Below, in pieces: positions 13-21,477 of a stretch of DNA of 64,000 nucleotides; within the stretch, counting starts at the first letter, position 1, and each line of letters begins with the position of its first letter. Source of the stretch: an uncultured Thiotrichaceae bacterium (lineage in GTDB: Bacteria > Pseudomonadota > Gammaproteobacteria > SZUA-229). The notes beneath the pieces were generated by a model. It made no database searches. It was not told the DNA's origin and worked only from the letters and a program-made list of their open reading frames with translations. Location of the stretch: positions 482 through 64,481 of the forward strand of contig CAZRKQ010000019.1 of the NCBI GenBank assembly GCA_964600755.1, read 5' to 3'. Position numbers and translations under genes: made by a program.

Positions 13-88
13 TGGAGCTGGTGGACGGAATCGAACCCCCGACCTGCTGATTACAAATCAGCTGCTCTACCAACTGAGCTACACCAGC
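13..88 (-). tRNA. tRNA-Thr, anticodon TGT
   Basis: The reverse complement folds as a 76-nt cloverleaf with a perfect 7-bp acceptor stem, GCTGGTG pairing with CACCAGC. The D arm reads AGCTCAGTTGGTAGAGC, the anticodon loop is TTTGTAA, the T-loop is TTCGATT and the 3' end is CCA. One G-G mismatch sits in the T-stem. Confidence 0.85.
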
Positions 89-6127: not shown

Positions 6128-6150
6128 ACCAGGATGAAGATAATGCTTTT

Positions 6151-6329
6151 AACGCAAAGGCGCAAAGACGCGAAGGACGCAAAGAATAATTTTTTATAGG
6201 TGTGTAAATTACATCCTGTCATCTCGACCGAAGGGAGAGATCTCGTGATGACATTGTGCTTTTGATGTCGTATCAACCAACACAACATCTGTCACCTTTG
6301 CGTCCTTCTCGTCTTTGCGCCTTTGCGTT
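6151..6329. repeat. Inverted-repeat element A of the GCAAAG-hexamer family
   Basis: Left arm AACGCAAAGGCGCAAAGACGCGAAGGACGCAAAG occupies 6151-6184. Right arm CTTTGCGTCCTTCTCGTCTTTGCGCCTTTGCGTT occupies 6296-6329. The arms are near-perfect reverse complements, and the centre contains a nested palindrome TGTCATC..GATGACA. Confidence 0.75.
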
Positions 6330-6342
6330 GAAACGAATTAAT

Positions 6343-6885
6343 CTAGTTTTCACCCCAGTCGATGGTTGAATGTGGCGGTTTCTTGCTGGACTCCGGGTTC
6401 AGATACATACTGAAGTTTCTTGTTCTCTGTGACCCGAGCAGGTATAGCGTGAGCCTGCCTTCCATTCGGTAGTTATCATTTCCAAGATTTAAATCATCAT
6501 ACAAAATACTGGTAATCCAGTAGCCCTCATGGTCAATGCGATTTGAAAGACTCGCAGCTTGATCCTGCAGCCTGGTTAGTTTATTTGTTGTTGTATTGGT
6601 CAATACCAGCCTGTTAATACCTATACGTACAACTTCCCTTGTTTTTGAGCGGTACTGGACCAGCAGTGAATCTCGCGCCTGCTGTTGTGGAACACTGATC
6701 CTCAGCTCACCTTTGTAAACCTGTATAGCAGTCGTGTCTGCAATAATTACTGGCGCAAACAACAAGCTCACACTCACCAGCAAGCCAAGTGCCGTACATT
6801 TAAGCATATTCATCCTGCGCTTCCGTATTGTGTATTGGTAAATCAAAGCAACCACTATTGTCATAGACCAGACAACAATGAACAT
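6343..6885 (-). CDS. hypothetical secreted or membrane-anchored protein
   Basis: ORF track gives 180 aa. An internal Met at 6813 begins a signal-peptide-like segment MNMLKCTALGLLVSVSLLFAPVIIA. The start ATG overlaps the stop of the upstream CCA-like gene as TAATG. Confidence 0.5.
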   Translation of the reverse strand: MFIVVWSMTIVVALIYQYTIRKRRMNMLKCTALGLLVSVSLLFAPVIIADTTAIQVYKGELRISVPQQQARDSLLVQYRSKTREVVRIGINRLVLTNTTTNKLTRLQDQAASLSNRIDHEGYWITSILYDDLNLGNDNYRMEGRLTLYLLGSQRTRNFSMYLNPESSKKPPHSTIDWGEN

Positions 6886-7739
6886 TATCCATCTTTATTA
6901 TTCTTTCGCTCTTTAAATAAAGCATCCAGTCCGAATGAATTAAAAACAGCATCTGCTATAGCTCCAAGCGCCTCATAGAAAGTTTTCACCACAGTTGAAA
7001 TATTATCTGTTTCAGCAGCGGCCCGATCGAGAGACCGCAATGCATCAGGCAGGCAGTTTTCAGAATCATGTTGTTTTTGGCTGGCATTTTTATCACATTC
7101 TTCAAACAAGGCATCCAGCTCCTTACTGATTAGCTGCAAGGCACCACAACGGTGAAGAACATGGAAAAATTCCGATGGCCGCGGTGAGGCCATTACCTGT
7201 AAAACGGCGTCACTGATAGCATACCGCGGGATCTGCTCGACCGCACCCGACGCGGCCATTTCTTTCATCAGAGCGAACGTAGCGTGTGCAATACTGAAAC
7301 CCCATGCTGTCAGTCTTGCTGCCCACACAGCTGTCGTTAACAGGTTTTGCGGTATACGTACAAAGTGTGGCGTGACATGCCGCAACACGCCCTCAATAAG
7401 GTCTTCCTGGCCATCATATGGATCGATGATATCGTCACCATCGCTCGCCATGGCAAGAATTGTCAGCGCTCGTGTAGCAAGCTCATTTTCCAGCGTCACA
7501 CCATCATCACATTGATATCGCAGCTGGCCTGATTCCTGGTCAAGGTACTGATGCCGGGCGAGTTGGTATGAATCGCCTGATTCGGCATGGGTGAAGCGTG
7601 TTTCATCAACCTGGTGGCGCTGAAAGCCCGCAGCGATTATCTCATCGGCTTGTGCACCGCTTATGATCCACTCTGTTCGTTGCAGCGGGAGATCAAGTAA
7701 CCGACACGTAATAGTTTCACCTGCGGGATAGAACTGCAT
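6885..7739 (-). CDS. truncated CCA-adding-enzyme (class II nucleotidyltransferase) paralogue with degenerate catalytic motifs
   Basis: Residues 1 to about 215 align without gaps to the E. coli Cca head and neck regions, including IIDPY, LRHV and VFFQVL/EFFHVL with CGAL. GGAVRD is replaced by AGETIT, DRD by QRTE, and RRD by TRA. There is no HD domain, and total length is only 284 aa. Confidence 0.7.
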   Translation of the reverse strand: MQFYPAGETITCRLLDLPLQRTEWIISGAQADEIIAAGFQRHQVDETRFTHAESGDSYQLARHQYLDQESGQLRYQCDDGVTLENELATRALTILAMASDGDDIIDPYDGQEDLIEGVLRHVTPHFVRIPQNLLTTAVWAARLTAWGFSIAHATFALMKEMAASGAVEQIPRYAISDAVLQVMASPRPSEFFHVLHRCGALQLISKELDALFEECDKNASQKQHDSENCLPDALRSLDRAAAETDNISTVVKTFYEALGAIADAVFNSFGLDALFKERKNNKDG

Positions 7740-7780: not shown

Positions 7781-8060
7781 TTACCTGTATATTATGCGAT
7801 AGATTGCATCCGCATAATCATCAGACACCAGTATGGAGCCATCCGGCAGGTTAATTACGTCCACTGGCATGCACCTTGCCGGCATTGCGTGAACCGACAA
7901 AGACGGTCGCTTTATCACCAAGCGCCATTTGTCTTGCATTCTCGACCTGTGCGTACAGTTCGACCTGAAAGCGTGGAGGCAGCTTGAGCTCACCAAGAGG
8001 CAGTTCGGCGGTAGAAACCGAGAGGATTCCAGCACTGAAAATTAAACACAGCATGCGCAA
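7781..8060 (-). pseudogene. remnant of a PQQ-dependent soluble sugar (glucose/sorbosone) dehydrogenase with an internal deletion and frameshift
   Basis: The 7851..8060 ORF encodes a signal peptide plus N-terminal motif FQVELYAQVENARQMALGDKATVFVG. A different frame, 7781..~7866, encodes the extreme C-terminus PVDVINLPDGSILVSDDYADAIYRIIYR. About 300 central residues are missing. Confidence 0.45.
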
Positions 8061-8167: not shown

Positions 8168-9370
8168 CTATTTCATAGCCACTCTGGCAAATTTTCGCTT
8201 ACCGACCTGGAACACGCTCTCGGTTCCTGAAGTTATCCTCAGTGACTTGTCCGATACCTTGTCGCCATCTATTTTTACCGCACCTTGCTGCACCATGCGC
8301 ATCGCTTCGGATGTGCTGCTGCACAAGCCGGCGTCTTTCAGCAGGTTTGCAATAGGGTAGCCATCCTCGCCAGCCTCAAACACGTGTTGCGGAATATCAT
8401 CAGGAATCGCGCCCCTGGCAAATTGCGCAATAAAACCTTCGCGAGCGCTGCTTGCTTCTTCCTGTGAATGAAAACGTGCAATGATTTCCTCTGCCAGCAT
8501 AAACTTGATGTCCCGCGGATTCTTGCCGGTCGCGATATTCTGTTTATAGGCTTCAATTTCTGTCATTGGCCGGAAGCTCAACAATTCGAAGTAGCGCCAC
8601 ATCAGCTCATCGGAAATCGACATGATTTTGCCAAACATGTCTTTTGGCTCATCAGCAATGCCGATGTAGTTATTGAGTGACTTCGACATCTTCTGCACAC
8701 CGTCCAGTCCTTCCAGAATAGGCATGGTCAGCACCACCTGCGGCTTCTGCCCATGCTGCTCCTGCAACTGGCGTCCCATCAGCAGATTAAATTTCTGGTC
8801 GGTCCCGCCGAGTTCAACATCGGCTTCAAGCTCAACCGAGTCATAACCCTGTATCAACGGATAGAGGAATTCATGTATCGCAATGGCCTGGCCGCTGTTG
8901 TAGCGCTTGCTGAAGTCATCACGTTCAAGCATGCGCGCAACTGTGCTACTTGCAGCCAGCTTGATCATATCAGCGCTGTTCTTGCGAGCCATCCACTCGG
9001 AATTGAAAACCACCTTGGTTTTTTCATGGTCCAGGATCTTGAATATCTGCTGCTGGTAGGTCGTGGCATTCTCGTGCACTTCAGCCTGCGTCAGCGGTGG
9101 CCTGGTAGCACTTTTGCCGGTCGGATCACCGATCATGCCGGTGAAGTCACCAATCAGAAACAGCACCTCGTGCCCCAGGTCCTGGAACTGTTTGAGCTTG
9201 TTGATGAGCACCGTGTGGCCAAGATGTAAATCGGGTGCAGTCGGGTCAAAACCTGCCTTGATTTTCAGCGGCCGACCCTGCTTCAGTTTCGCAATGAGCT
9301 CTTCTTCGACGAGTATCTCGTCGGCGCCTCGGCGGATAATATTTAGTTGCTCATCTATGGCCGTCATCAC
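8168..9370 (-). CDS. tyrS: tyrosyl-tRNA synthetase
   Basis: The HIGH-like motif PDLHLGHTV and KMSKS are present. The likely start is MTAIDEQLN at 9370; the ORF-track ORF extends to 9421. Confidence 0.9.
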
Positions 9371-9482
9371 TGGTTCCCGGTGCAAAAGGCGTATAAGATA
9401 CCTTCCGACTGGAATAATCACAAGAAACTGTTTCCCAGCATGTTAAATGCGCTGAAAAAAGTTCGAAATATGTCCAGTATTG

Positions 9483-12555: not shown

Positions 12556-12653
12556 AACGCAAAGGCGCAAAGAGCGCTAAGTTAATGTCTTTTTTGTTCT
12601 AAATATTATTAATTTCTTTCTTTGCGTCCTCGGCGTCTTCGCGCCTTTGCGTT
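12556..12653. repeat. Inverted-repeat element B of the GCAAAG-hexamer family
   Basis: Left arm AACGCAAAGGCGCAAAG occupies 12556-12572. Right arm CTTTGCGTCCTCGGCGTCTTCGCGCCTTTGCGTT occupies 12620-12653. The centre is AT-rich. Confidence 0.7.
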
Positions 12654-19626: not shown

Positions 19627-19906
19627 AACGCAAAGACGCGGGGGCGCAAAGGACACAAAGGTAATATAAGTAAGTCGTTAGTTGCTTCGACATATTGAGT
19701 GTTCTGTAGGACTGTATCAGCGAAGCGTTGCAGGCAACATTTAGACCCGGTCATTTTTAGACTGTCGAAGGGCAACGACTTACGCCTTATATCGGTCTAG
19801 ATAACTCAATAGATGGTCTACCTAACCATGAGAAGATTTCTCCCTGGTTTGAGATGACACACCACATTAATACTCTGCGCCCTTTGCGTCTTTGCGCCTT
19901 TGCGTT
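19627..19906. repeat. Inverted-repeat element C of the GCAAAG-hexamer family, with a nested inner palindrome
   Basis: Left arm AACGCAAAGACGCGGGGGCGCAAAGGACACAAAGG occupies 19627-19661. Right arm CTCTGCGCCCTTTGCGTCTTTGCGCCTTTGCGTT occupies 19874-19906. An inner inverted repeat GTAAGTCGTT...AACGACTTAC is nested inside. Confidence 0.75.
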
Positions 19907-21260: not shown

Positions 21261-21477
21261 CCGCAGAGGCGCAGAGAAGTTCAGGTCCGCAAATAACGCA
21301 AATGAACGCGAATGCTTAAACGGTCAGTTAACATTTCTGTAATACCTGTAGCGGCCAACTGTAGACGACTCATGCCGATTACTTACCCGTTCAAAATAAA
21401 AAAGCAGCCGGATGGCTGCTTTTATTACACAATTGACGTTTTACTTTGCGTCCTCTGCGTCTTTGCGCCTCTGCGTT
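21261..21477. repeat. Inverted-repeat element D of the GCAAAG/GCAGAG-hexamer family, containing the mrp terminator
   Basis: Left arm CCGCAGAGGCGCAGAGAAG occupies 21261-21279 and is followed by GCAAATAACGCAAATGAACGCGAATGC. Right arm CTTTGCGTCCTCTGCGTCTTTGCGCCTCTGCGTT occupies 21444-21477. An internal hairpin GCAGCCGGATGGCTGC with flanking A and T tracts lies at 21393-21428. Confidence 0.7.

Follow-up and report, generated by a model that had tools for sequence, protein, structure and literature searches.

Within a 64,000-nt stretch of DNA from an uncultured Thiotrichaceae bacterium (contig CAZRKQ010000019.1; hereafter, the window), we examined a gene, pCca, that encodes a truncated, motif-degenerate homologue of the class II CCA-adding enzyme (Cca). 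The gene lies at 6885..7739 on the minus strand, with its stop codon at 6885-6887, and specifies a protein of 284 aa, as assigned from the open reading frame (ORF), the PRK10885 profile, BLASTP and an AlphaFold2 model. The product is very probably a conserved pseudoenzyme paralogue of Cca. Judged from alignments, all catalytic and nucleoside triphosphate (NTP)-selecting signatures of Cca are lost, and the gene is under purifying selection, not decaying. The best explanation overall, which we hold to be reasonably likely, is a Cca-derived, non-catalytic pseudoenzyme of a clade of short proteins that acts by binding.

Fold, motif losses and selection

The NCBIfam profile PRK10885 aligns residues 1-249 of pCca with profile positions 1-248 of 409 (E=1.2e-46), at a score of 159.3 bits that lies below the curated cut-off of 451. 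Pfam PolyA_pol, the check proposed with the original prediction for this DNA, does match pCca and stays just under its gathering cut-off (18.7 bits against 23), as does PolyA_pol_RNAbd (20.2 against 22). By BLASTP, residues 1-258 of Escherichia coli K-12 Cca (b3056) align with pCca 1-259 at 35% identity (E=2e-41). The alignment had been described as gapless over ~215 residues; it is nearly so, with 7 gapped positions, and is longer, reaching residue 259. The conserved blocks IIDPY, LRHV, FFHVL (previously written FF.VL) and CGAL are all present, as had been stated.

Sequence comparison alone gave pCca no match in the PDB at E<=0.001, and the fold was therefore confirmed by structure prediction. 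From 31 family sequences, AlphaFold2 produced a confident model (predicted local distance difference test (pLDDT) 85.8, predicted template modelling score 0.84), residues 1-20 being its least confident part (pLDDT only 50-59). Foldseek returned 44 PDB matches at E<=0.001: class II enzymes that add CCA, CC or A, plus entries with no deposited name beyond bacterial protein or tRNA-processing enzyme. pCca thus has the fold of a polymerase-β-like head and a helical neck.

We surveyed the motifs in 80 full-length family members, using an alignment that also included E. coli Cca, plus five intact Cca proteins (residues in E. coli numbering; remnants in pCca numbering, all on the minus strand). At the helix-turn, G7-G8 becomes G-E, with Glu in 77 of 80, and R11-D12 of motif A becomes T/C-R; in pCca, residues 6-12 (7704..7724) read AGETITC in place of VGGAVRD. 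The first Asp of the catalytic DxD, D21, is replaced variably by R, Q, K, N or S. The second, D23, is Glu in 79 of 80, a conservative swap, and pCca carries QRTEW for KDRDW at residues 20-24 (7668..7682). In the acidic pair E56-E57, E56 is conservatively changed to Asp in every member (80/80) and E57 to I/L/V. By the B. stearothermophilus structure, one of these two would be the third catalytic carboxylate. The BxA motif R62-x-E64 becomes R-x-Q. Motif B, R90-R91-D92, becomes T-R-A/P/S (TRA for RRD at residues 89-91, 7467..7475), and N96 becomes Leu. The motif D template E130-D131-x-x-R134 gives way to R/H/Y-V-P-Q-N (RIPQN at residues 128-132, 7344..7358), with R137 changed to T/I and R140 to V. 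DxD, BxA, RRD (ribose recognition) and EDxxR (the amino-acid template that reads CTP and ATP) have had these functional roles assigned to them (PMC2910056). Sixteen of the 20 basic positions conserved in the intact head and neck are also lost across the family; those kept are R62, R91 and R122, plus R144 in 78% of members.

The loss of the nucleotidyl-transfer motifs claimed in the original prediction was, if anything, understated, since it left out the further losses of motif D, BxA and the EE pair. Its reading of DRD as QRTE holds for the first Asp and overlooks the conservative change of D23 to Glu. It had also named a condition under which it would fail, namely that the catalytic acids are present after all; the 80 aligned members show losses, with positions 23 and 56 as acid swaps only.

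The C-terminal tail (residues 216-284; 6888..7094, minus strand) consists of a variable linker and three helices, modelled at 232-243, 247-268 and 273-281 with pLDDT 94-97 over residues 230-270. Over residues ~216-259, the alignment continues into the opening helices of the C-terminal (HD) domain of Cca, and the last ~25 residues have no counterpart there. The HD motif H255-D256 becomes Q/E-A in the family (EA in the tail of pCca) and the rest of the HD domain is absent; pCca shows neither the H...HD...D metal-binding signature nor a Pfam HD match. In place of a tRNA-binding body and tail of ~150-200 residues, ~45 residues align past the neck before the protein ends at 284. The C-terminal domain is thus cut down to three helices. 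The HD phosphohydrolase is missing, as had been noted; the tail, previously considered unrelated, shares ancestry with the beginning of the C-terminal domain of Cca.

Searching 5.8 billion protein clusters recovered ~87 proteins of 274-290 aa with 53-75% identity to pCca, after which the next matches, at 31-39%, are intact Cca proteins. The family occurs in only 3 of 185,579 species genomes, all of them metagenome-assembled genomes of uncultured Gammaproteobacteria. We compared codons across six loci, with synonymous sites saturated in most pairs. The ratio of nonsynonymous to synonymous substitution rates (dN/dS) is 0.11-0.28 for pCca, 0.11-0.39 for the partner gene downstream of it and 0.02-0.08 for the flanking tyrS and glnS; in the sole unsaturated pair (L007-L010), pCca gives 0.28. 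These values indicate purifying selection on a gene that nevertheless evolves 4-5 times faster than its housekeeping neighbours. The family therefore combines lost catalytic motifs with purifying selection, the two marks of a pseudoenzyme, and its ~87 intact relatives and low dN/dS agree with the retained, degenerate and truncated Cca homologue first proposed. Between L007 and L010, dS of pCca is 0.26, five times that of the adjacent tyrS (0.05), with 0.085 for the partner gene; this suggests recombination or locally uneven divergence inside the locus.

Other annotation of the region was sparse. Nothing in the G+C content of pCca (0.49; window, 0.485) points to a foreign origin, G+C at third codon positions alone being somewhat low (0.44; neighbours, 0.52-0.61). 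Rfam had no match in the pCca region, promoter and terminator scans of it gave nothing convincing, and no clear Shine-Dalgarno sequence was seen ahead of the pCca ATG. PADLOC had no match for pCca, the partner protein or two divergent short-clade members, and PHROGs assigned pCca to a generic tRNA nucleotidyltransferase family alone. A defence-system or phage reading was dropped on these grounds.

A wider clade of short Cca-like proteins

Searching the family profile against 1.84 billion representative proteins identified, besides intact enzymes, short proteins of 224-309 aa that match it end to end (P0167, P0088, P0168, P0169, P0170, P0175, P0179, P0184, P0194, P0202, P0249 and P0284), giving at least 11 further relatives that are more divergent and have degenerate motifs. 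P0167, P0170 and P0184 lie well within their contigs and are thus genuinely short. In all of these proteins, GG is without its second Gly and DxD without its first Asp, and both E57 and the EDxxR template are lost; the template position mostly reads RHPEY in the divergent members, and RRD is kept in some. Common to all are WGF(R/H)VAHG and RPSEFFRVLHRCGAL. We compared motifs between 14 short representatives and 136 intact enzymes. Over this wider clade, position 8 is I, R, C, E, K or T, positions 56-57 are variable or deleted, and neither E23, D56 nor E8 is conserved.

When head and neck were placed in a neighbour-joining tree with 56 intact enzymes, all 14 short representatives grouped as a single clade in 100 of 100 bootstraps, with the window family nested inside. 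By these comparisons, the short, motif-degenerate Cca-like proteins are a small monophyletic clade scattered over several bacterial lineages. Their nearest intact relatives are Cca-type proteins of 379-398 aa (P0171, P0172, P0173 and P0185), which have all catalytic motifs and a replaced HD motif. One of them, P0171, scores 480 bits against the PRK10885 cut-off of 451 and has no Pfam HD match. The phosphohydrolase function was thus probably lost before the short clade arose. A further intact Cca, P0090, the best by word search (contigs L016/L017), could not be tied to the lineage of the window.

Two neck blocks stand out in the clade. In pCca, the first is WGFSIAHAT (residues 146-154; 7278..7304, minus strand) and the second RPSEFFHVLHRCGAL (residues 187-201; 7137..7181, minus strand), the most conserved stretch of the short clade. 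W146 is found in 13 of 14 short representatives against 13 of 56 intact enzymes, H152 in 14 of 14 against 28 of 56, and G153 in 12 of 14 against 9 of 56; R193 (12/14) and R197 (14/14) in the second block are specific to the short clade. Together with S189, these make up the clade-specific invariant residues, all of which lie in the neck. Conservation of the head drops from 0.72 in intact enzymes to 0.54 in the short clade, whereas that of the neck is equal (0.64 and 0.62). In terms of aligned residues, constraint has moved from head to neck.

The divergent members occur in unrelated settings: one has DUF1643 and a phosphomutase-like gene as neighbours, one is surrounded by small ORFs that include a primase zinc ribbon, and one lies beside an HbpS-like gene. 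tyrS and homologues of the partner are absent from their neighbourhoods. Examples of very different surroundings are L019 (1705-2996) and L020 (130-3884). One divergent member overlaps the upstream DUF1643 gene by 4 nt; another has small ORFs around it, one for a DnaG-type zinc-ribbon protein, in a mobile-element-like arrangement followed by a 117-aa secreted repeat protein.

The tyrS-glnS locus and the partner gene

The window subfamily is confined to one uncultured Gammaproteobacteria lineage, in which it occupies a fixed locus between tyrS and glnS. Every recovered locus reads anmK, M23 peptidase, tyrS, a variable insert, pCca, partner and glnS, followed by a PTR2 transporter, TfoX, birA, coaX and a SPOR-domain gene. 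In the window, tyrS lies upstream of pCca on the same strand (8168..9421, minus strand; PF00579). The insert is lacking in L012 and L013, where pCca begins 29 nt past the tyrS stop (L012 5552-5582, L013 3595-3625), so that a single transcript of tyrS, pCca and partner is possible there. L014 has a 273-nt spacer. L010 and L011 carry genes for a redoxin, DUF4266 and DUF3570, to which L005 adds an intact 363-aa pyrroloquinoline quinone (PQQ)-dependent sugar dehydrogenase of the glucose/sorbosone type (GSDH). This envelope-gene islet (L005 6735-9936, the redoxin being TlpA-like) is whole, partial or absent among relatives.

The PQQ-dehydrogenase pseudogene that had been proposed between the gene pair and tyrS is real. 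A GSDH remnant at 7784..8054 (minus strand) joins 64 N-terminal and 28 C-terminal codons out of frame: 8054..7866 corresponds to residues 1-64 (70% identity) and 7867..7784 to residues 335-362 (82% identity) of the GSDH-family protein intact at the same place in L005. Taken together, pCca and tyrS appear to be neighbours through inherited synteny, with a small variable islet between them.

The earlier idea of a tRNA-binding pseudoenzyme, or of an accessory factor working with tyrosyl-tRNA synthetase, is improbable in the light of this locus and of the protein itself. pCca does lie downstream of tyrS on the same strand throughout the core lineage, as close as 29 nt, and keeps R62, R91 and R122. 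However, 0-4 unrelated envelope genes, or a gene remnant, intervene in most relatives, and the divergent clade members are away from tyrS, which speaks against the proposed functional tie. In addition, the body and tail are missing, the BxA acid is lost and the 16 lost basic residues include R137 and R140. Because of the lost basic residues and the missing body and tail, tRNA binding by pCca appears unlikely from its alignment with intact enzymes.

Downstream of pCca, the longest ORF of the partner gene spans 6343..6885 on the minus strand (180 aa); both this ORF and that of pCca are as originally given. The junction reads GGA TAA TGT, so that the stop of pCca and the ATG overlap as TAATG, which had been taken to indicate an operon. 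The 58 relatives of the partner are confined to the pCca core lineage; most are 155-157 aa long and start at the residue equivalent to M25 of the window ORF, at 6813. A GGAAG Shine-Dalgarno-like box lies 7 nt 5' of ATG 6813, and in relatives the gap between pCca and partner is 11-82 nt. On these three grounds, an over-extended ORF probably accounts for the TAATG overlap, and the partner gene probably encodes a 156-aa exported protein from ATG 6813 (6343..6813, minus strand). The overlap is specific to the longest ORF of the window, but same-strand adjacency across a short gap is conserved in all core-lineage loci. The pair, whose occurrence across genomes had been suggested as a check, is kept in every recovered locus of this narrow lineage, and the two genes are probably co-transcribed there.

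The partner protein has a signal peptide followed by an all-beta Ig-like sandwich, and matched no Pfam, NCBIfam, PADLOC or PHROG family. A hidden Markov model of the partner found nothing in four loci of the divergent clade (L018, L019, L020 and L023), so that the pairing is not kept there, and translational coupling is not conserved. An obligate two-gene module is thus not borne out: the partner is exported, its fold is generic, and it is absent beside divergent clade members. A complex of the two is unlikely, given that one is Cca-like and cytoplasmic and the other an exported sandwich protein. Adjacency to both tyrS and the exported protein is most likely lineage-specific synteny and not a common mechanism.

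A separate observation concerns a palindromic element in the intergenic stretch that separates glnS from the partner gene (window 6147-6333), in which 38-nt inverted arms of tandem octamers, (RCGCAAAG)x4, surround a 111-nt core. Further occurrences are at 12620-12653, 19873-19906 and 21444-21477 of the window. At least 120 metagenome contigs of 36-74% G+C contain the 20-nt arm core AACGCARAGGCGCRAAGACG, usually as inverted pairs around variable cores of ~10-150 nt, and the element has no Rfam family. We rejected this GCAAAG-rich repeat as a lineage marker, given the range of G+C contents and the many habitats of the contigs. One distant Cca-like match (L119, ~30% identity) from repeat-bearing contigs was uninformative on the genome of the window. 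The element is a sequence-conserved hairpin, widespread across very different genomes.

Competing readings and comparison with known systems

We propose that pCca descends from a duplicated class II cca gene. The descendant would have kept the head-and-neck fold while losing CCA addition and most of the C-terminal tRNA-binding and HD region, and would work non-catalytically, through binding. The conserved neck (WGFxVAHGT and RPSEFFRVLHRCGAL) and the three-helix tail may form the binding surface, with a protein or small ligand, and not tRNA, as the putative target. We put forward this specific neck-binding mechanism only tentatively. A more speculative and rather unlikely extension is that the short clade consists of Cca-derived regulators, whose neck might bind a nucleotide signal, the genuine Cca or a different enzyme of tRNA 3' ends and thereby adjust tRNA turnover or CCA repair. 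If true, this would be a bacterial case of a dead paralogue controlling its live counterpart.

A few points weigh against the favoured explanation. Acids survive at positions 23 and 56 in the core family, a near-invariant Glu has appeared at the G8 position, and the metal site or chemistry may have been altered instead of lost. Monophyly in the neighbour-joining tree may be inflated by common motif loss and long branches, and the 29-nt spacing in L012 and L013 may reflect a link to tyrS in the core lineage.

A different origin would make pCca the only cca homologue of its lineage, with encoded CCA ends rendering addition dispensable and the catalytic site decaying as the protein was kept for another role. 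All eight tRNA genes examined, at window 13-88 (minus strand), L005 17627-19675 and L001 9077-9532, encode the 3' CCA, so that CCA addition would be needed for repair alone, as in E. coli. The 64-kb window holds no intact cca. However, E. coli encodes all of its CCA ends and keeps Cca for repair nonetheless. The deep clade in which pCca nests, made up of short degenerate proteins, also spans several unrelated contexts and compositions, which is easier to reconcile with a long-lived paralogue than with a recent loss. We regard the only-homologue account as quite improbable.

We give equally little credence to pCca being an enzyme still, with new chemistry performed by relocated acids (E8, E23 and D56) in the old active-site cleft. 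Their near-invariance in the core family and a conservation of 0.80 over the N-terminal 30 residues speak for such an enzyme. Against this, none of the three is kept over the wider clade, the residues that bind ribose, base template and triphosphate are all gone, and residues 1-20 are where the AlphaFold2 model is least sure. A decaying pseudogene or annotation artefact, to which the adjoining GSDH remnant, the lack of a clear Shine-Dalgarno sequence and the somewhat low third-position G+C might point, is in practice refuted by the ~87 uninterrupted orthologues, the confidently predicted fold and a dN/dS well under 1 in every pair.

The Cca-derived pseudoenzyme that we favour belongs to a real, undescribed branch of a known family. 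Curated models (NCBIfam, Pfam) stay below their cut-offs on pCca, its PGAP name is hypothetical protein, and literature searches on Cca pseudoenzymes or inactive paralogues found nothing relevant, which agrees with the earlier statement that no such family is described. CCA-adding enzymes rank with the best-studied RNA polymerases; we found no report of a naturally occurring, selected and catalytically dead branch of the Cca family. The automatic JGI name of pCca relatives, "tRNA nucleotidyltransferase (CCA-adding enzyme)", is almost certainly incorrect and would lead metabolic reconstructions of these uncultured bacteria astray. Conservation is the sole functional clue at present and the organisms are uncultured, which limits the value of the finding for now. 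Should a defined binding function exist for the clade, it would show what the head-and-neck scaffold is capable of without catalysis and could expose a regulator of tRNA 3'-end maintenance.

Among known systems, Proteobacterial Cca (E. coli b3056, PRK10885) shares with pCca the head and neck fold, the N-terminus and the blocks DPxxGxxDL, LRHV and P..FF..L..CGAL. It differs in that pCca has the signatures for catalysis and NTP choice replaced, the C-terminal domain ended after its first helices and HD gone. The HD-less Cca-type enzymes of 379-398 aa are closer, having the neck signatures WGFxVAHG and RP.xFF.VLH.CGAL and, like pCca, no recognisable HD motif, but they keep GGAVRD, [DE]RD, EE, RRD, EDPxR and a full-length C-terminal domain. 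Poly(A) polymerase PcnB has the superfamily and the Pfam head domain in common with pCca; its model TIGR01942 matches pCca weakly (E=0.006), and the poly(A) polymerase motif [LIV][LIV]G[RK][RK]Fx[LIV]h[HQL][LIV] (PMC2910056) is absent on direct reading of pCca residues 25-60. The split CC- and A-adding class II enzymes of Aquifex, Bacillus halodurans and others offer a parallel, being paralogues that have lost part of the ancestral function, and structures of A-adding enzymes (4WC2 and 1VFG) are the best Foldseek matches of the pCca model. Such enzymes retain an intact core and the tRNA-binding body and tail and have lost one specificity, for example by deletion of the flexible loop (PMC2910056). 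In pCca, by contrast, the entire core is degenerate, yet a region of about flexible-loop length is retained.

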